This document shows, piece by piece, positions 4,731 through 20,912 of a DNA stretch of 24,000 nt; within the stretch, counting starts at the first letter, position 1; the number at the start of each line of letters is the position of its first letter. The notes beneath the pieces were generated by a model, which saw only the letters and a program-made list of their open reading frames with translations, made no database searches and was not told where the DNA came from. This DNA is from Acaryochloris marina S15 (GTDB lineage: Bacteria; Cyanobacteriota; Cyanobacteriia; Thermosynechococcales; Thermosynechococcaceae): NCBI RefSeq assembly GCF_018336915.1, contig NZ_CP064923.1, forward strand, positions 5,552,268-5,576,267. Direction: 5' to 3'. The translations under genes and the position numbers were made by a program.

Positions 4731-6038
4731 GTGGTCAGGATTCTCCGGTTGTCAGAGATGACATCTGAAGAACTCGCTTCCATCAAACGACGGGCCGAGT
4801 TAGATATTGAACAGGCGCTAGCTGTCGCCAAAGAAGTCATTGACGAGATTCGCGCTGACGGTGATCAGGGCGTGATCAAATACGTCCGCAAATTTGATTT
4901 TCCCGGTGCCACAACCGAAAATCTGAAAGTGACCGAAGCCGAATTTGCCGTTGCCCGCGAGCAAGTCGAGCCCGAAATCAAAGCCGCGATTGAGCAAGCC
5001 TATCGCAACATCAAAGAAGTGCACGAACGGCAAATGCCAGAAGAAGTGCAGCTTGCCGAAATCGATGGCGGCGTCTTTGCTGGGGAAAAAGTCACCCCTA
5101 TTGCCAGTGCTGGACTATATGTGCCTCGGGGTAAAGGCTCCTTTCCCTCAGTGATGCTGATGCTCAGCGTGCCAGCGGTCGTAGCCGGAGTGGAAAGAAT
5201 TGTTGTCTGTACACCACCGGACAAAAACGGCACCGTAGAGCCTGCCTCTCTTGTCGCAGCTGAACTGGCAGGCGTGAAAGATGTATACAAATTAGGCGGC
5301 ATCCAAGCAATCGCAGGCATGGCGATCGGTACTGACACAGTACCCAAAGTCGATAAAATCACTGGACCTTGCAACGTCTATGGCTCCGCCGCCAAGCGCC
5401 TGCTCTACGGCACCGTTGATGTTGGCTTACCCGCTGGTCCTAGTGAATCGATTATTCTTACGGACGAAACCACTGACCCCCGGATTGCAGCCTTAGATCT
5501 GCTGGTAGAAGCAGAGCATGGTCCCGACTCGGCAGGCTTACTGGTTACCCACAGCGAAGACCTAGCCAAGGCCGCGTCCAAACATGCAGACGACTATATG
5601 CAGCAGTTGCCTGAATGGCGCAAAAACTTCTGTCAGAAGGGCCTGTCTTCTTATGGCGGTATTATTCTCACCTCCAGCCTGGAAGAATCGATTGATTTCC
5701 TCAACGATTATGCCCCTGAGCATTTAGAAGTTCTGGTACAAGACCCCCTCAGCGTTCTCGGCAAAATCAAGAATGCTGGTGAAATTCTCCTCGGTCCCTA
5801 TACCCCCATTCCAACGGCCAACTACTGCATTGGCGTCAACGCCATTCTGCCTACGGGAGGCTTTGCTCGCTCCTACTCGGCGGTATCGGTATACGACTTT
5901 CTCAAGCGCACTGGCATTGGTTATTTAACAAAAGAAGGCTTTGATCGCTTGGGCCATACGGCTCAAACCTTGGCGGAGCATGAAGACTTCCCGGCCCATG
6001 CCATGGCCATTCGTGAGCGTAAGAACCTGCTCCCGTAA
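4731..6038 (+). CDS. hisD: Histidinol dehydrogenase
   Basis: The 435-aa ORF starts at GTG with an AAAGGAG Shine-Dalgarno upstream. It shows full-length HisD features such as GPCNVYG, EAEHGPDS and a YAPEHLE-type segment. Confidence 0.95.
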   Translation: MVRILRLSEMTSEELASIKRRAELDIEQALAVAKEVIDEIRADGDQGVIKYVRKFDFPGATTENLKVTEAEFAVAREQVEPEIKAAIEQAYRNIKEVHERQMPEEVQLAEIDGGVFAGEKVTPIASAGLYVPRGKGSFPSVMLMLSVPAVVAGVERIVVCTPPDKNGTVEPASLVAAELAGVKDVYKLGGIQAIAGMAIGTDTVPKVDKITGPCNVYGSAAKRLLYGTVDVGLPAGPSESIILTDETTDPRIAALDLLVEAEHGPDSAGLLVTHSEDLAKAASKHADDYMQQLPEWRKNFCQKGLSSYGGIILTSSLEESIDFLNDYAPEHLEVLVQDPLSVLGKIKNAGEILLGPYTPIPTANYCIGVNAILPTGGFARSYSAVSVYDFLKRTGIGYLTKEGFDRLGHTAQTLAEHEDFPAHAMAIRERKNLLP

Positions 6039-6057
6039 GGGGCGGTGGAGGGTTACC

Positions 6058-7281
6058 GTGTCCGATCAACTCCTGTATCAGATTCAGACGTTACAGTTTT
6101 CTGATCAGGCAGCGGCGAATGCCCTGCTGAAGGACTTCGTCAATGACAATTTCCCTTTCAATGTGGAGCAGGTACAGGTACGTCCTTCGGCGGTATCCCT
6201 TAACTCCATTAATGGATTTCTGCATACCGTGGAAGGAGACAAACTGTTCTTCAAAACCCACGTTGAACCCCAAAGCCTGATTCATGAGTATTACAACTCC
6301 ACGATCATGGCAGAGGCAGGCTATCCCATTATTCAGCCCATTTTTAGCTCAACAGAATGGGGTAAGCAGCTGCTGGTCTATGAGTTTTTTGAATCCCCAT
6401 CTCTGTTTGATGTGGCTCGTCAGATTGAAACGGGACAGCGAGGCGGAGCTGACCAGATTATTGCCCTGCAGGAAAAAGCAGACCAAGACCTGTGGGCCAT
6501 CTATCAGCAAACCCTGCAGCCTTTATCAGCCGAAGACCATGCCGAAGTCCCCATTCACCAACTGTTTGTCCATCGCCTAGTCGGAGGACGATATCACGAG
6601 TTTTACGCAGGCAAAGAAGTCAAGCTACCAGAACACACCCTGAACTTTGACCCACTCGCTCAACTAACCTGGCAGATTAATGGCATACCTTACCAAGACA
6701 CCCTAGCTGACATTATTCAAACAGCCAGTCAAAAGCTTGTCCCAACCTCTACTCCCTCTGTTGTCGGTCATGGTGATGCTCATAATGGCAATGTGTTCGT
6801 AGATGAAGACGCAGAAACCCTGATCTATTTTGATCCTGCCTTTGCCGGACGGCATTCACCCTTTTTAGATCTAACGAAGCCGATCTTCCATAACGTATTT
6901 GCGATTTGGCTGTATTTCCCCCAAGAGATCGCCAAAGACCTATCCATTAACTTAGAGATCTCAGCAGACCAGATCCAAGTGGATCATGATTTTCGACCAT
7001 CAGCTATACGTCTAAGATTCCTGCAATCAAAGCTCATGCATGTACTCCAGCCCTTGCTTGAGCGCCTAAAAGCTTCTGGTCAACTCCCTGAAACCTGGCG
7101 ACAGGAACTCAAGTTGGCACTGTTTTGCTGTCCTTTTTTAACCATGAACCTCTGCGATACCCAACGCTTTCCGCCAGAAATTACGCTACTGGGCTTATCC
7201 CTAGCAGTAGAAATGGGCAGTTCTAGCACCTCCCAGAACCAGAGCATTTTAGATACTGCCCTGGACCAACTCAACATATAA
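6058..7281 (+). CDS. Protein-kinase-like fold phosphotransferase (APH/choline-kinase-type)
   Basis: The track ORF is trimmed to GTG 6058, which has a GGAGGG Shine-Dalgarno 6 nt upstream; the longer form overlaps hisD. The catalytic-loop motif HGDAHNGNVF is followed by IYFDPAFAG, a DFG-equivalent Asp. Confidence 0.75.
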   Translation: MSDQLLYQIQTLQFSDQAAANALLKDFVNDNFPFNVEQVQVRPSAVSLNSINGFLHTVEGDKLFFKTHVEPQSLIHEYYNSTIMAEAGYPIIQPIFSSTEWGKQLLVYEFFESPSLFDVARQIETGQRGGADQIIALQEKADQDLWAIYQQTLQPLSAEDHAEVPIHQLFVHRLVGGRYHEFYAGKEVKLPEHTLNFDPLAQLTWQINGIPYQDTLADIIQTASQKLVPTSTPSVVGHGDAHNGNVFVDEDAETLIYFDPAFAGRHSPFLDLTKPIFHNVFAIWLYFPQEIAKDLSINLEISADQIQVDHDFRPSAIRLRFLQSKLMHVLQPLLERLKASGQLPETWRQELKLALFCCPFLTMNLCDTQRFPPEITLLGLSLAVEMGSSSTSQNQSILDTALDQLNI

Positions 7282-8661: not shown

Positions 8662-10089
8662 ATGGAAACGCAAACCGATTCCAATCCGAGCAACTTAGAT
8701 ATTCAATTCAATTTTTGGCAACAGTGGTATCCAGTCGCTCCCTTAGAAGACTTAGATCCACAGCGCCCCACTGCCATTACGTTATTAGGGCAACATTTTG
8801 TTATTTGGCAACCCAAGCATTCTGACCAATATCTAGTATTTCAAGATCTGTGCTCCCACCGCTTAGCTCCCCTCAGTGAAGGTCGCATTGACGAGCAAAC
8901 CGGTCAGCTCATGTGTAGCTATCACGGTTGGCAATTTGATCAAGAAGGTCTTTGCACCCACATTCCTCAAGCTGAAGCAGTCACCCCTAAGCAGGGACAG
9001 CTGTACTGCGTTACTGCTGTCCCCACTCAAGCGCAAAGTGGACTGTTGTGGGTATGGCCAGATCCAGACACCCGAGAAATTGCTGCCACACAACCTTTGC
9101 CTCTCTCCCCCCTCATTAATGCTGACCAAAACTTTGTCTGGTCCTCTGTCATGAGAGATTTGGCCTATGATTGGCAAACGTTAGTTGAAAACGTCTCTGA
9201 CCCGAGTCACGTTCCCTTTGCCCATCATGGTGTCCAAGGCAATCGCAACCAAGCCGCTCCTATCCCTATGGAGGTTCTGACCTCCACCCCAGAGCTAATT
9301 GAAGTCTTGACCACGGGGAAGTTCGCCACCACAATCACCTTTCAACCGCCCTGCCGCTTGGAATATCAATTTTCTATCGGTGAAGGGAAACAAGCAGCTA
9401 TGGTCACCTACTGTATTCCCATTGCCCCAGGTCGATCTCGCATCGTAGCCCTGTTTGCACGCAATTTTGCCACAGGTCTCATGAAAGTGCTTCCTCGCTG
9501 GGTAGAGCATATGAAAAACCGCAATCCAGTGCTGGATGGCGACATGATTTTGTTACGTGCCCAAGAAAAACAGCTTCTTCAGCACACCCAAACCCAAAAT
9601 TGGCAAACCGCCTACAAGCTCCCCACCAGTGCGGATCGTCTCGTGATTGAATATCGGCGATGGTTCGAAAAGTATAGTCACGGACAAATTCCTTGGGGAT
9701 CTGCTGATGGGCAGATTTTCGTTGCTTCCAACAACTATGACTATTTACAACCTCTAGGAGAGAAGCGACCTCAAATTCTGGATCGATATCATCAACACAC
9801 CTTGATCTGTAGTAGCTGTCGACGAGCGTTGAGCAGAATCAAGCTATTGCAAAAGATTTTGGTAGCTGTCTTTGCGATCGCAATCAGTGGAACAGCAATC
9901 TTGCCTGATTCTTTACTCCCTTCCCGCCATAAGATTGTGCATCTAAATATCATTGAAATTCTTATTTATCAAGAATCTGAATACCCAATCTTATGCTGGG
10001 ATGGGAGTAAGAGTGACGTGGGGGATTCCCATGGTTCTCATAGGGCTTCTAGGGTTAGGGATCTATTATGGGTTGAAATATTGGCTTAA
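8662..10089 (+). CDS. PaO/Tic55-family Rieske [2Fe-2S] non-haem-iron oxygenase; the C-terminus as sequenced is frame-disrupted
   Basis: It has the Rieske motif CSHRLAPLSEGRIDEQTGQLMCSYH, the mononuclear-iron motif ENVSDPSHVPFAHH and the family-typical C-terminal CSSC. The last roughly 50 aa of this frame look non-native. The expected C-terminal anchor is encoded in another frame ending at 10132. Confidence 0.85.
   Translation: METQTDSNPSNLDIQFNFWQQWYPVAPLEDLDPQRPTAITLLGQHFVIWQPKHSDQYLVFQDLCSHRLAPLSEGRIDEQTGQLMCSYHGWQFDQEGLCTHIPQAEAVTPKQGQLYCVTAVPTQAQSGLLWVWPDPDTREIAATQPLPLSPLINADQNFVWSSVMRDLAYDWQTLVENVSDPSHVPFAHHGVQGNRNQAAPIPMEVLTSTPELIEVLTTGKFATTITFQPPCRLEYQFSIGEGKQAAMVTYCIPIAPGRSRIVALFARNFATGLMKVLPRWVEHMKNRNPVLDGDMILLRAQEKQLLQHTQTQNWQTAYKLPTSADRLVIEYRRWFEKYSHGQIPWGSADGQIFVASNNYDYLQPLGEKRPQILDRYHQHTLICSSCRRALSRIKLLQKILVAVFAIAISGTAILPDSLLPSRHKIVHLNIIEILIYQESEYPILCWDGSKSDVGDSHGSHRASRVRDLLWVEILA
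9928..9995. repeat. AT-rich palindromic mini-insert (MITE-like) inside the Rieske oxygenase gene
   Basis: A perfect 10-bp terminal inverted repeat (CATAAGATTG at 9928-9937, CAATCTTATG at 9986-9995) encloses an inner palindrome ATTCTT/AAGAAT (9957-9976). By hand count 18 of 68 bases are G+C, far below the surrounding gene. Confidence 0.55.

Positions 10090-13396: not shown

Positions 13397-13419
<23 letters not shown>
13036..13419 (+). CDS. VOC/glyoxalase-family protein
   Basis: The track ORF is trimmed to ATG 13036, which overlaps the vanZ stop as ATGA. The motifs LLHTALLVQDLERSRQFYGEVLGL and LFVHDPDGNIIEL are typical of glyoxalase/bleomycin-resistance folds. Confidence 0.8.
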
Positions 13420-16770
<3,351 letters not shown>

Positions 16771-17279: not shown

Positions 17280-17560
17280 AGTCTCGCTACAGGAATGAAT
17301 TGAAAAACGGCCCAGTGCTCTCGTACCATACTATGACGGCACCTCTGACAGAAAGAGTCGTTGGGCTGCAAAGACATCCTTTTGGGAGGGAAGAACCATC
17401 GATCGTCCACCCTCCATAACCGTTACACCAGCCTAGGTCACTCTTTAGGATTGGAACAGGTTCCCAGGGTCACCGTCTAAACAATCAACACGTTATGCCC
17501 AAAAAGCATACCTACTCAGTTCCCCTACAGTTACTGTTATTGTTTTTCAAATCACAACTT

Positions 17561-18067
17561 ATGCAAAAATTTCTGCTTTTTTCATCCATACTTCTAGCCC
17601 CTTTAGCAGCTACCCCAGTGCTGCATGCTCAGGAAACGGTTTCTCACCTTCCCCTTCCCTATGCTCAACCCTTAGTCATCGCTCAAGACGCAGTAAAAGC
17701 CGACCCCTTCTTTTTGACCCGTGCCAAGAATCTGGCACGGCAAGCAGCCGAACGAGAAAACGGTGGCCTTAGTCAGTACCGGGCTGAAACATCGATGTAT
17801 GGCCCTGCCATCGATTCCCCTCATGTCGAGAATGAAGATGGCAGTGTCACCTTCTCCTTCAAAGGGGGTGCTCCTGGGTTTGTTTCCCCGACTCTAGAAA
17901 CAGTAGCCACCGTTGCTCCTGCAGGCATCGTTACGATCGGTTACAACGGTCCCATTCGTCCCGCAGCCGCTCAGCCCTCCGAGCCTGACCCTACCCCGGC
18001 AGCCCCAGCTTCCATTCCCCAGGTTCCATCTCAAATTATTGACCAAATCAAAGATTTAGTTGAATAG
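17561..18067 (+). CDS. Secreted protein with one copy of an unassigned 87-aa domain
   Basis: The ORF is trimmed to ATG 17561, giving the Sec-type signal MQKFLLFSSILLAPLAATPVLHA/QE. The domain lies at 17702-17962 and is followed by a Pro-rich tail. Confidence 0.7.
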   Translation: MQKFLLFSSILLAPLAATPVLHAQETVSHLPLPYAQPLVIAQDAVKADPFFLTRAKNLARQAAERENGGLSQYRAETSMYGPAIDSPHVENEDGSVTFSFKGGAPGFVSPTLETVATVAPAGIVTIGYNGPIRPAAAQPSEPDPTPAAPASIPQVPSQIIDQIKDLVE

Positions 18068-18236
18068 ACGCCTTATCCATCGGATCTAGCGAAAGAACGC
18101 AGAACAACGCGTTTCTATCACCAGCCATCTGAATTCATCGCCCCCACAGATAGGCATCCCAGACGATAGCCTATGGGTGTTTTCTGCCTTTACTATGGGC
18201 AGATGGTTTTGTTTATCTCTCTTTAGGGTTGTGTCT

Positions 18237-19217
18237 ATGCGCCAGTTTGTTGCTTTTTCAAAGGTTTTATTGCTTCCCCTTTGTTTGGGAATAGGGCAGG
18301 TAGCGGTCTATGCCCAATCCTTACCCTCCGTCACTCCTCCTCCTCAAGCCACAGATCCCTTTTTCCTGACCCGGGCAAAGAACCTAGCCAGACAAGCAGC
18401 CGAACGACAAAATGGGGGTCTCAGACTTTATCGTGCAGAAGCTGCCATGTATGGGCCTGCCATAGATGCGCCCAGTCAACAGAATTCCGACGGCAGCGTC
18501 ACCTTTACCTTCAAAGGCGGAGCACCTGGCTTCGTCACGCCCACAGTAGAGACTATCGCGACCGTTACCCCCCAAGGATTAGTCAGTCTCCAATACAACG
18601 GTCCTTTACGCTCTGTTGCCCTTGCCAAGGTCAAGCCCACCCCCTCTCAAACTCAAGAGCCAACACAACCCCTTAATCAATCGACCAACTCCTTAGAAAA
18701 GCCTGTTTTAATCCCTAGCTCCCAACCCTTACTGCCTAATTCATCTCCACCCTTACCCGCTCAGCCAAAGGCACCAAGCACTCGCCCTCCCAGCTCTGGC
18801 CTACCCACTCTACAGCCAGCACCCGTCATCCCCCCCAGGCAAACATTGCCACCTATCGCGACACAGCCAACACCTGCTATTACCCCCCAGAGCACTCCCA
18901 GCCGCCCAGTTCAGACCTCACCAGCATCTATCCAAAACACATCTATCCAAAACGCTGATTTCTTTCTCTCTCGCGCCAAAAACTTGGCTAGGCAAGCCGC
19001 TATCAACGCTAACGGGGGTTTAGCCCAGTATCGACCTGAAACTTCAATGTTTGGTCCTGCTGCTGGCACCCCACATCAAAAAAATCAAGATGGCAGTATC
19101 ACCTTTAGATTCCAAGGAGGAGTCCCTGGCTATCGCAATCCCACTGTAGAATCTGTGGTCACAGTGACCCAAAATAGCACTGTCACTGTTACGTATAATG
19201 GCCCCATTCGACCATAG
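18237..19217 (+). CDS. Secreted protein with two copies of the same 87-aa domain joined by a Pro/Ser/Thr/Gln-rich linker
   Basis: The ORF is trimmed to ATG 18237, giving the signal MRQFVAFSKVLLLPLCLGIGQVAVYA/QS. The domains lie at 18354-18614 and 18954-19214, with a linker of about 113 aa between them. Confidence 0.7.
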   Translation: MRQFVAFSKVLLLPLCLGIGQVAVYAQSLPSVTPPPQATDPFFLTRAKNLARQAAERQNGGLRLYRAEAAMYGPAIDAPSQQNSDGSVTFTFKGGAPGFVTPTVETIATVTPQGLVSLQYNGPLRSVALAKVKPTPSQTQEPTQPLNQSTNSLEKPVLIPSSQPLLPNSSPPLPAQPKAPSTRPPSSGLPTLQPAPVIPPRQTLPPIATQPTPAITPQSTPSRPVQTSPASIQNTSIQNADFFLSRAKNLARQAAINANGGLAQYRPETSMFGPAAGTPHQKNQDGSITFRFQGGVPGYRNPTVESVVTVTQNSTVTVTYNGPIRP

Positions 19218-19342
19218 GCGCTGCCATTCTGACAAACCTAGGGCAAGCAGCTGCACAAACATCAGCAACGGGGTAAGTTCTCCTAGTAAATGGGTAAACT
19301 AGGACATATCAGACAAAAAATTTATTGTTAAGGATAAGTAGC

Positions 19343-19789
19343 ATGGGTTTGAGCTTCAAGCACTGGAGTGGGGGTATAGCACTAGCCACCTTGATTCTGA
19401 CAGGGAATGGCGTTGCACTAGCTCAAGAAGTTGATCCTCTCGATCGGCCATTACGTCAACCCACCATATCTGAAACGCTGGATCGGCAGTCCAACCTCGA
19501 TAGTTACTGGGAAGATGAGTCCCTCGGAGGGGATGCTAAGTTTCTTTTCAGTGTGGGTACACCAGAAGGAGCCATTCGAAGCGCTGCTGAGCGTGTTGAA
19601 GTGATCTACAAAGATTTACTACAGCAGCAAGATGATGATTTCCCCACCGTTCGCACCCGCGATTTAGCCAATCCTTACGCAACATCATTGCTAGAACTGC
19701 AAAGCCTATCAGGCATTGGGAACTCTGAACCCGAGTCTACTCCCCAATATATTCCTGCTGTAGCCCCTGCTGTTCCTGCGCTTTGGTAG
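19343..19789 (+). CDS. Hypothetical secreted acidic protein
   Basis: ATG 19343 (or TTG 19325) gives the signal-like N-terminus MGLSFKHWSGGIALATLILTGNGVALA/QE. The gene is followed 35 nt later by a perfect terminator hairpin. I recognise no family. Confidence 0.55.
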   Translation: MGLSFKHWSGGIALATLILTGNGVALAQEVDPLDRPLRQPTISETLDRQSNLDSYWEDESLGGDAKFLFSVGTPEGAIRSAAERVEVIYKDLLQQQDDDFPTVRTRDLANPYATSLLELQSLSGIGNSEPESTPQYIPAVAPAVPALW

Positions 19790-19880: not shown

Positions 19881-19953
19881 TCCAGGGTGCAGGAGTTGAA
19901 CCTGCCTAGGGCGAATTATGAGTTCGCTGCCTCAACCGCTCGGCCAACCCTGG
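19881..19953 (-). tRNA. tRNA with CAU anticodon, most likely tRNA-Ile2 (lysidine type); elongator tRNA-Met not excluded
   Basis: The reverse complement folds as a 73-nt cloverleaf. Acceptor stem: CCAGGGT/ACCCTGG. U8 and A14 are present. D-arm: GCCG-AGCGGTTG-AGGC. Anticodon stem GCGAA/TTCGC with loop CTCATAA. T-arm: GCAGG-TTCAACT-CCTGC. Discriminator A, and no encoded CCA. The D-arm and anticodon arm resemble plastid trnI-CAU as I recall it. Confidence 0.85.
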
Positions 19954-20180: not shown

Positions 20181-20912
20181 GTGATCTTGGCAAAAGCGAA
20201 TAAGGCCTCAACCAACAAACCCCGAAATCGATTCAAGATTGATCCATCTATCAAACGCACAGTATTACTCCTACTGTTTATGTTGATAGTCGGATCCATC
20301 TGTGGTGCCGTAGGTTATGTGTTCGCCCGTCAATCTTTAAAAGGCATTACACAACCTGCCACAAACCCATTTCTGAAGGAGTCTGACGATTTAGATCGTC
20401 GCCCACGCCAAGGGGCCGATTTTCTTAACGAGAAAGACCTAATTGCCAAAGTTAAGTCTCAGACTAACGGTGCCAATATCGCCAAAGAGAAACAAAAAAC
20501 AGCACCCAAACCGAAGAAACCCAAATCTTCTGACACCAAAAAGGATCAAAAATCACAGCCGAAGTCTCTCCCGATCAAAGTCAACAATCAGGGAATGAAC
20601 TTTGAGGTCAAGTCTTTAGCCCGTGAGGATGATACGCTCATCCTTAACGTTGCCTTACAGAACAGTAGCGATGACACAATTCAGTTTGTCTATACTTTTT
20701 TAGATATTACTGACGATCAAGGGCAAGCCTTGTTCTCAGAAATTCGAGGGTTACCAACTGAGTTTAAACCTAAAGGAGAAATCTTCTTTGGCACAATCAA
20801 AATCTTGGATGTTCCGCCGGAAACCGTTGAAAAAGTCTCGATTTCCTTAAACGACTATCCTGACCAGAACGTCAAACTAGACATTCAAAATATCCCAGTC
20901 GCTGATGAGTAA
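20181..20912 (+). CDS. Hypothetical single-pass membrane protein with a Lys-rich spacer and a C-terminal beta-rich domain
   Basis: The 243-aa ORF has only non-ATG starts available (GTG 20181 or TTG 20187). It has a basic N-terminus, the TM helix TVLLLLFMLIVGSICGAVGYVF, the low-complexity stretch KEKQKTAPKPKKPKSSDTKKDQKSQPKS, and then a roughly 110-aa domain that may be a DUF4352-type beta-sandwich (unverified). Confidence 0.55.
   Translation: MILAKANKASTNKPRNRFKIDPSIKRTVLLLLFMLIVGSICGAVGYVFARQSLKGITQPATNPFLKESDDLDRRPRQGADFLNEKDLIAKVKSQTNGANIAKEKQKTAPKPKKPKSSDTKKDQKSQPKSLPIKVNNQGMNFEVKSLAREDDTLILNVALQNSSDDTIQFVYTFLDITDDQGQALFSEIRGLPTEFKPKGEIFFGTIKILDVPPETVEKVSISLNDYPDQNVKLDIQNIPVADE

Follow-up and report, generated by a model that had tools for sequence, protein, structure and literature searches.

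What is an 87-residue module that occurs three times in two neighbouring genes of a cyanobacterium, and what might it do outside the cytoplasm? The question is raised by a 24,000-nucleotide stretch of the Acaryochloris marina S15 genome (NZ_CP064923.1, positions 5,552,268 to 5,576,267; hereafter the window, with coordinates counted from its first letter). Two same-strand open reading frames (ORFs), here called ProtA (17561..18067, +; 168 aa from MQKF) and ProtB (18237..19217, +; 326 aa from MRQF), both taken from the ORF list and confirmed by exact-sequence look-up, hold all three copies of the module: one in the first protein, two in the second. We find that the module defines a domain family that is restricted to cyanobacteria and uncatalogued in any database, being absent from Pfam, NCBIfam, the Protein Data Bank (PDB) and the literature.

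Copy 1 lies in ProtA (17702..17962, +; net charge about -1 to -2), copies 2 and 3 in ProtB (18354..18614, +, isoelectric point (pI) 9.4; and 18954..19214, +, pI 10.2, ending at the C-terminus of the protein), and each is 87 aa long. An earlier note on this DNA, made from the letters alone, had given these exact positions together with amino-acid identities of 65/87 between copies 1 and 2 and 55/87 between copies 1 and 3. Both are reproduced here, copies 2 and 3 share 50/87 residues, and an independent repeat search at the DNA level arrives at these three copies too, with nucleotide identities of 70% and 61%. Third codon positions account for 53/81 nucleotide differences between copies 1 and 2, 54/101 between copies 1 and 3 and 57/107 between copies 2 and 3, and 39 of the 65 residues that are identical in copies 1 and 2 are encoded by different codons. 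Estimated with the Nei-Gojobori method (NG86), synonymous divergence (dS) is saturated in all three pairs while nonsynonymous divergence (dN) amounts to 0.18-0.36; the three copies are therefore old duplications maintained by protein-level selection.

The DNA of the locus is only ~85% identical to that of MBIC11017, which permits dN/dS to be estimated region by region between orthologues. Copies 1, 2 and 3 give ratios of 0.007 (0.005/0.723), 0.027 (0.016/0.594) and 0.074 (0.036/0.484), respectively, compared with 0.15 (0.083/0.56) for the tail of ProtA and 0.23 (0.159/0.678) for the linker that separates the two domains of ProtB. Among Acaryochloris orthologues the domains are nearly gap-free, with one gapped position in copy 3 relative to locus L007, and both the linker and the ProtA tail gain indels in the more distant Acaryochloris genomes (1-17 gapped positions among orthologues in the linker). 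Few parts of the locus are thus as constrained as the domains, and the linker has the character of a spacer. The earlier claim that divergence is mostly synonymous, and that selection has acted on the protein, is borne out on every count: third-position excess, saturated dS, low dN, and dN/dS of 0.007-0.074.

Does the module belong to a family that is already known? A search of Pfam-A (24,736 models, hmmscan, E <= 10) with both proteins and the single copies returned sub-threshold noise only, a scan of NCBIfam with the same queries gave nothing above noise, and the profile of a 61-sequence domain alignment (A1) found nothing below E = 0.8 among PDB sequences. Literature searches across 8 million papers with the domain motif, the orthologue names AM1_2916/AM1_2917, UniProt identifiers and A0238/B1XMR3 (a relative discussed below) turned up nothing relevant, and neither the ProtA nor the ProtB gene appears in the supplements of two omics papers on A. 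marina. Two Pfam families, PF22112 (OmcA-like_N) and PF21265 (SBB_T7), appear as precomputed tags on some relatives. We rejected both: the 25-29 bits behind them are summed from two or three stretches of 17-31 residues on the repeated DGSxTFTF hairpin, these short matches cover some 30 of 167 model positions, and PF21265 reaches E = 0.03-0.07 in the window proteins. As a working name we use RAKNLARQ-NGGL domain, after the motif RAKNLARQAAExxNGGLxxYR[AP]ExxM[HFY]GP, followed by DGSxTFxFxGGxPG and, further on, YNGPxR, downstream of a signal peptide, an arrangement that we find in the window proteins.

Each window copy matches the family profile at E ~1e-53 to 1e-55, a match that is partly circular in that the window copies sit in the seed alignment. 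A single-sequence search is free of such circularity, and retrieves 75 relatives, all of them cyanobacterial. Beyond that, a HMMER profile search of 1.84 billion representatives yields 315 matches at E <= 1e-3 (206 at E <= 1e-10), a profile search of a named database at least 854 homologous clusters at 90% identity, and a survey of 185,579 species genomes 213 confirmed stretches. Of these 213 stretches, 80 were listed; all loci among the 80 that bear a lineage name are cyanobacterial, save one contig of a 'Sphingobacterium' metagenome-assembled genome (MAG), and a few are labelled only 'uncultured bacterium'. The contig in question (L077; CALRTB020000006.1, labelled Sphingobacterium thalpophilum MAG) is evidently mis-binned or a contaminant; the protein it encodes is 96% identical to a Picosynechococcus protein, and it is flanked by an ABC ATPase gene and a nitroreductase-family gene that match A0240 and A0239 of PCC 7002. 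The check on phyletic distribution that the earlier note had called for consequently leaves the family, that contig aside, confined to cyanobacteria. Hosts include Acaryochloris, Thermosynechococcaceae, Picosynechococcus, Leptolyngbya-like genera, Coleofasciculus, Microcoleus, Tychonema, Oscillatoria and Planktothrix. No Nostocales, Prochlorococcus or marine Synechococcus were found among the matches listed, and Synechocystis 6803 is reported to have no homologue (Table 1, PMC7880944).

How the module is deployed can be read from 216 retrieved proteins with a near-complete domain match. One copy is present in 139 of them, two in 73 and three in four; the median N-terminal leader is 44 residues, and the last copy ends no more than 5 residues from the C-terminus in 71%. 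In most members the domain is the entire mature protein, and only Acaryochloris has a one-domain gene and a two-domain gene in tandem. We tried to map the window copies onto domain 1 or domain 2 of other two-domain proteins, which proved uninformative, all identities falling between 42% and 64%; only copies 1 and 2 are clearly each other's closest relatives (75%). Fusions make up a minority, in which the domain is always placed at the mature N-terminus or the extreme C-terminus. The partners comprise a RICIN lectin (WP_083636655.1), Calx-beta (in a 2729-aa protein), SYLF/Ysc84, BsuPI (two separate clusters, Picosynechococcus strains among them), TPR plus a Trypsin_2 peptidase (P0178, with the domain N-terminal), pentapeptide repeats, and two recurrent C-terminal modules that have no Pfam match. 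The first of these (P0157, P0183, P0156) contains NGYRVTF...WRYYVEELP...DLSNWVLGLPxC...GIKWQPGGGF, the second (P0134, P0202, P0148, P0137, P0124) ALxLxRLxN...LDVLxxPxT...VYQIxA...W, and both may be further uncatalogued cyanobacterial domains.

Turning to structure, an AlphaFold2 model of copy 1, built from alignment A1, is of high confidence (mean predicted local distance difference test (pLDDT) 96, predicted template-modelling score (pTM) 0.86). It comprises a helix at 4-19, a long loop with two short helical turns, and strands at 41-43, 49-56, 65-71 and 77-84, in agreement with the one helix and about four strands anticipated from the letters. The module is thus predicted to fold autonomously, with the alanine face of a 16-residue helix against an antiparallel sheet of four strands. 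In a helical-wheel projection A8, A12 and A15 (along with L5, L11 and A16) share one face, which is presumably the one packed on the sheet judging from this geometry, and N10, R13 and Q14 (along with R7 and E17) lie on the face opposite. Twelve positions are invariant across the family and present in all three window copies (A8, N10, A12, R13, N20, G21, Y26, M32, F51, G55, P58 and N82), and Q14, A15, G22, L23, R27, G34, T50, F53, E66 and V71 are conserved at 90% or more. The family alignment contains no conserved Cys or His and no catalytic-type triad; 98 of 110 domains have no Cys at all. For the tandem arrangement we modelled a compact relative (mature P0026, alignment A2). Here each domain reaches a pLDDT above 90, and a pTM of 0.53 together with a linker pLDDT of ~54 indicates that the domains would be beads on a flexible string and not a fixed pseudo-dimer; at that pTM, fixed packing of the two domains is unsupported.

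Foldseek found no neighbour of the copy 1 model at E <= 0.1 in either PDB or BFVD. The top PDB matches, all weak (E > 0.3), are cystatin-like proteins, type IV pilins, BamE, latexin, sialostatin and a fungalysin propeptide. The model accordingly falls into the broad class in which one helix lies on a small antiparallel sheet, and membership of any named family is unsupported. The earlier note could not assign the domain, and neither can we: there is no Pfam or NCBIfam match, no relative among PDB sequences and no significant Foldseek neighbour in PDB or BFVD, so that neither profile nor fold searches place the unit in a characterised family. As to its impression of a small inhibitor-like or PepSY-like module, matches at E > 0.3 neither confirm nor exclude it.

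It is instructive to set the domain beside the systems it most resembles. PepSY and FTP domains (PF03413, PF07504) are likewise small exported alpha+beta modules with a helix on a four-stranded antiparallel sheet, single or in tandem, and the fungalysin propeptide 4k90_B gives the model its best TM-score (0.55), but the Foldseek E-value of that match is 2.1, hmmscan at E <= 10 lists neither Pfam family, neither the 79 loci nor the fusion partners include an M4/M36 peptidase or a PepSY-type membrane protein, and the domain motif RAKNLARQAAExxNGGLxxYRAExxMxGP bears no relation to PepSY. Cystatin-like proteins (cystatins, latexin, Bacteroides 4r4k) also lay a helix across an antiparallel sheet and provide the top Foldseek E-value (0.33), yet 4r4k has a TM-score of 0.24, Pfam Cystatin (PF00031) does not match, and the QxVxG loop is absent from the three copies. 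BamE/SmpA_OmlA and BLIP are small periplasmic modules of a helix plus three or four strands, the latter a tandem of small alpha+beta units, and BamE chains recur among the weak matches. However, BamE (PF04355) differs in TM-score (0.24-0.30, E ~2), in the lack of a Pfam match and in that the window proteins have no lipobox, whereas BLIP (PF07467) has no Pfam match, is not among the top 50 Foldseek matches, and contrasts with tandem domains that are not predicted to pack into one surface (pTM 0.53, low-confidence linker). The globular domain of type IV pilins shares the succession of helix, long loop and four-stranded antiparallel sheet (8v7p, Foldseek probability 0.51), but the window proteins have Sec-type A-x-A sites in place of a prepilin leader (G|F/M-x-x-x-E), the domain helix is polar and has no hydrophobic N-terminal half, similarity in fold is weak (TM-score 0.35), and the neighbourhood contains no pilus genes. 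Closest in the mode of action proposed below are LysM, SH3b and SLH modules on Pro/Thr-rich linkers: small, non-catalytic and exported, in one to three copies with low-complexity spacers, standing alone or at the end of larger enzymes and adhesins. There is no sequence or fold relationship to them, though, and the only localisation data for our domain include the thylakoid lumen.

Export was gauged from signal-peptide rules and from a PCC 7002 relative labelled solely outside the cytoplasm. ProtA starts with a putative Sec-type signal peptide for signal peptidase I (SPI) of 24 residues (MQKFLLFSSILLAPLAATPVLHA|QE; 17561..17632, +), with one basic residue, a 12-residue hydrophobic core (Kyte-Doolittle mean 2.31) and an A-x-A-type site, LHA|QE; ProtB has one of 26 residues (MRQFVAFSKVLLLPLCLGIGQVAVYA|QS; 18237..18314, +), with one basic residue, a 12-residue core (mean 2.1) and the site VYA|QS. 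Neither reads as a lipoprotein, ProtA having no Cys and the LPLC of ProtB not fitting a lipobox. By these rules, both proteins would be exported via Sec/SPI signal peptides, as had been proposed. The linker of ProtB (18615..18953, +), previously put at about 113 aa and called rich in Pro, Ser, Thr and Gln, is indeed 113 aa long, with 25% Pro and 61% Pro/Ser/Thr/Gln, fast-evolving and prone to indels; a role as a cell-envelope or extracellular spacer is plausible, and by our estimate such a Pro-rich spacer could, when extended, span tens of nanometres. In ProtA the domain is followed by a Pro/Ala-rich spacer of variable length and sequence (17963..18034, +) and the C-terminal motif IIDQIKDLVE (18035..18064, +). 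That motif is kept in orthologues L002-L007 (e.g. as GIVDQIQELIK in L007) despite the varying spacer before it, and is probably a short amphipathic helix or docking motif.

The two paralogues also differ in charge. Counted from the first domain to the C-terminus, and in every Acaryochloris pair (the window and L002-L009), ProtA is acidic (pI 4.4-4.8, net -5 to -8) and ProtB basic (pI 9.3-11.1, net +4 to +14; in the window pI 10.35, net +11); family-wide, net charge of the domain ranges from -11 to +7. This asymmetry, taken with the C-terminal motif of ProtA, suggests that the two paralogues may cooperate.

Is any member of the family known to be made? Starting from the mis-binned contig, a further search led to ACA98250.1 of PCC 7002, a protein of 332 aa with a calculated mass of 35.705 kDa, the site NQA|QT at 44-45 and three domain copies at E ~1e-40 each. 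An APEX2 proximity-proteomics study of PCC 7002 gives, in its supplement, a mass of 35.705 kDa for A0238 (B1XMR3), an entry described as uncharacterised in which a hydrophobic segment spans residues 21-38 and a weak SPI site, NQA-QT, falls at 44-45 (PMC7880944). Mass and site agree, and SYNPCC7002_A0238 (ACA98250.1, P0474) is therefore a three-domain member of the family. It was not identified in cytoplasmic GFP-APEX2 samples, it belongs to a set of 123 proteins found enriched with lumen-targeted PsbU-APEX2 in each of four analyses, and its mean log2 enrichment there (6.02) stands beside those of PsbV (5.95) and PetC (5.96) (PMC7880944). A member of the family is thus shown to be produced and to reside outside the cytoplasm, in the thylakoid lumen and/or periplasm; we place it no more closely because the authors caution that many PsbU-APEX2 proteins are periplasmic or plasma-membrane proteins (PMC7880944). 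Far from lacking homologues and expression, then, the family has plentiful homologues, one of them detected as protein.

The same protein is among the members that carry a wrong label. Table 1 of that study calls SYNPCC7002_A0238 a 'purine nucleoside permease', whereas the supplement of the same paper has 'uncharacterized protein' (PMC7880944), and some RefSeq/JGI records of P0051, P0026, P0034, P0079, P0322 and P0428 carry the permease label too. That the proteins really are such permeases has practically no probability in our view. The label itself is all that speaks for it, while neither NUP (PF06516) nor any transporter family is matched at E <= 10 by the window proteins or A0238, no membrane segment follows the signal peptide, and the mature protein, with its one to three small domains, is soluble. 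Since any transporter or NUP-family signal is absent, the label looks like a propagated misannotation.

What, then, might the module do? We give an even chance to the reading that the ProtA/ProtB module is a non-enzymatic extracytoplasmic binding (adaptor) domain, because it is small, folds by itself in the model, has no catalytic-type residues, comes in one to three flexibly joined copies, occurs as a terminal appendage, and is predicted to present a polar ridge. The binding function, the binding surface, the multivalency and the cooperation of the paralogues are parts that we infer. On this account the domain would act in the periplasm and/or thylakoid lumen, and its binding surface would be the invariant polar ridge, which consists of R7, N10, R13 and Q14 in the helix together with the N20-G21-G22-L23 turn and Y26-R27-x-E29 and is predicted to face the solvent. 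Several copies on flexible low-complexity spacers would make binding multivalent and add avidity. In other cyanobacteria the terminal module could serve as a handle that brings lectin, adhesin, lipid-binding, inhibitor-like or protease proteins to the same target; in Acaryochloris an acidic one-domain ProtA and a basic two-domain ProtB are kept side by side and may work together.

Several points weigh against this account. No ligand, partner or phenotype is on record, and no gene neighbour is conserved family-wide in the 79 loci. Fusions are scarce, most kinds being represented by one or two clusters at 50% identity. The role of the invariant polar residues might be structural alone, for instance in helix capping or in a buried salt bridge with E66, and the solvent exposure of the ridge is predicted from helical-wheel geometry only. 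Mean column identity is ~50% across cyanobacterial orders, unusually high for a generic binding module, and would also fit a subunit of a fixed complex. As noted for A0238, moreover, the lumenal set has its periplasmic and plasma-membrane entries.

A bolder version would make the domain the recognition module of a novel, cyanobacteria-specific extracytoplasmic system: in the lumen or periplasm the ridge would bind a single conserved target (for instance a photosynthetic complex, at its lumenal face, or an envelope polymer of cyanobacteria), ProtA and ProtB would form a heteromeric multivalent scaffold, and other lineages would use the module to deliver lectins, adhesins, inhibitor-like domains and proteases. 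We consider this unlikely. Less likely again, in our judgement, is that the module inhibits or regulates an extracytoplasmic hydrolase (either a serine protease or an enzyme of the beta-lactamase or penicillin-binding type) in the manner of PepSY/FTP, cystatins or BLIP. Such a role would account for the identity of several weak top Foldseek matches (4r4k, 4k90_B with a TMq of 0.55, latexin, sialostatin), for the placement of the domain before TPR and a Trypsin_2 peptidase in P0178, for the two clusters with a C-terminal BsuPI 'proteinase inhibitor' domain, and for 11 Microcoleaceae loci (Microcoleus or Tychonema) where a Beta-lactamase2-family gene is followed immediately, on the same strand, by a one-domain gene. 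Yet all the fold matches have E > 0.3, no Pfam inhibitor family is found at E <= 10 bar spurious matches of ~28 residues, the beta-lactamase adjacency is limited to one cyanobacterial family and the protease fusion to one cluster, most members, those of the window included, have no hydrolase neighbour, and the BsuPI fusion supports a carrier role just as much. Imagine instead that the proteins are accessory factors of the thylakoid lumen, binding a conserved lumenal face of a photosynthetic or respiratory complex. This, which we would rank below an inhibitor, sits well with the lumenal enrichment of A0238 on a par with PsbV and PetC and its absence from the cytoplasmic control, with a family found in cyanobacteria only and unusually conserved for an exported protein, and with one fusion to pentapeptide repeats, a class known from the thylakoid lumen. 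It sits less well with the lack of a homologue in Synechocystis 6803, with the absence of Nostocales, Prochlorococcus and marine Synechococcus among the matches listed, with fusions to a 2729-aa Calx-beta protein and a ricin lectin that better suit the cell surface, and with the periplasmic contaminants of which the authors of the PsbU-APEX2 set warn (PMC7880944).

Gene order bears on two further scenarios, both of which seem to us very improbable. In some ten loci (L010, L011, L013, L014, L016, L023, L025, L028, L032 and L065) from several families (hosts are Thermosynechococcaceae, Acaryochloridaceae, Petrachloros and 'Lyngbya' confervoides), HemJ (UPF0093), a sensor histidine kinase and a two-domain gene follow one another on the same strand, the kinase being a HisKA/HATPase protein of ~445 aa with two transmembrane segments around an extracytoplasmic loop of ~135 aa; in PCC 6312 a GerE-type response regulator lies directly upstream. 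The two-domain form might on these grounds be an accessory periplasmic partner, or a regulated target, of the membrane kinase, but the kinase is missing from the window and most lineages, translational coupling is not apparent from the intergenic gaps, which measure 125-270 bp, and the synteny may be mere inheritance within related orders. We would rate lower still a self-assembling subunit of a fibre, sheath or matrix with a pilin-like helix-on-sheet fold. The pilin 8v7p does have the highest Foldseek probability among the PDB matches listed (0.51), very strong conservation over most of the sequence would fit many subunit-subunit contacts, and the hosts are mainly mat-forming, gliding filamentous cyanobacteria; against this, there is no prepilin-type signal or hydrophobic N-terminal half-helix, no fixed tandem packing in the AlphaFold prediction (pTM 0.53), no adjacent assembly or secretion gene, and net charge varies from -11 to +7 across the family. 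A third arrangement, in Coleofasciculus, places the domain gene between a HI0933 flavoprotein gene and LpxD. We treat the HemJ-kinase, beta-lactamase and flavoprotein arrangements as leads, not as proof of functional coupling: the neighbourhood analysis suggested by the earlier note did bring lineage-specific arrangements to light, but not a family-wide partner. In many of the HemJ-kinase loci, queE and queC lie on the opposite strand just after the triplet.

At the locus itself, ProtA corresponds by exact-sequence look-up to I1H34_25340 / QUY42464.1 (190 aa) and to RefSeq WP_249369621.1 (168 aa), GenBank taking an upstream in-frame ATG at 17495, so that both start variants are in the databases. 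ProtB corresponds to QUY42465.1 / WP_212663631.1 (326 aa), with an alternative GTG start at 18177 that would give 346 aa. The MBIC11017 orthologues are AM1_2916 (B0CBD0) for ProtA and AM1_2917 (B0CBD1) for ProtB, and every record of these four proteins says 'hypothetical protein'; ProtA orthologues are present in every Acaryochloris locus examined. Between the two genes, and within the GTG-18177 extension of ProtB, a consensus scan picks up a terminator-like hairpin with a T-run (18183..18213, +), for which the evidence is weak, the scan giving 3 sites where 2.0 are expected by chance. More generally, promoter and terminator scans of the locus yielded no more than chance, and an Rfam scan found no structured RNA at ProtA/ProtB.

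On one side the pair is flanked by a divergently transcribed ispF and a ROK kinase gene with pyrG beyond, on the other by a secreted 154-aa protein (19325-19789, +; no Pfam match), a tRNA-Met (CAT) on the opposite strand (19881-19953, -; Rfam and ARAGORN agree), a 243-aa protein with one membrane segment and a Lys-rich region (20181-20912, +; no Pfam match), and a CNNM/CorC transporter, the tRNA standing between the domain-gene locus and the genes for the membrane protein and CNNM. The 154-aa and 243-aa proteins are kept beside the pair in all Acaryochloris loci and nowhere else among the 79. We considered both as partners of the family and rejected them, their co-occurrence with the pair being confined to Acaryochloris even by jackhmmer. 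Elsewhere in the window, ARAGORN alone reports a 92-nt tRNA-Gly (GCC) at 6613-6704 (-), inside ORF 5941-7281, which is probably a false positive because it has no Rfam confirmation. The left end holds an insertion sequence (IS)-type transposase (DUF4277 + DDE_Tnp_1, 560 aa; 1122-2804, -) adjoined by a PD-(D/E)XK-nuclease-like ORF (315-1085, -). Two longest-ORF starts look over-extended, that of the CTP synthase ORF (14059-15912, +), whose domain starts at residue 66 and which overlaps a MOSC gene (13397-14185), and that of the APH-like ORF (5941-7281, +), which overlaps hisD (4731-6038) by ~100 nt. A Rieske/PaO-type oxygenase of the pheophorbide a oxygenase family (8662-10089, +), unrelated to the domain, may be of interest given the chlorophyll-d host.

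Why should a small hypothetical domain matter? The cyanobacterial periplasm and thylakoid lumen still hold many proteins with no assigned role, and how proteins are sorted between the two is an unsettled question. Here is a family that is confined to cyanobacteria, conserved far more strongly than is usual for exported proteins, and hidden behind a wrong label in some records and one proteomics paper; defining it would correct a 'purine nucleoside permease' annotation that is spreading. A0238 belongs to the genetically tractable PCC 7002 and comes with proximity-labelling evidence, and knock-outs, tagging and pull-downs are therefore feasible. We regard the family as a well-supported, testable case in cyanobacterial extracytoplasmic biology and not yet as a demonstrated new mechanism. 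Should the domain prove to be one more small fold for binding or inhibition, the result would be a new entry of the domain-of-unknown-function (DUF) type, useful but modest. A role as a targeting handle, on the other hand, would account for the way in which several larger surface proteins of cyanobacteria are built, and the module could then be reused as a localisation tag.

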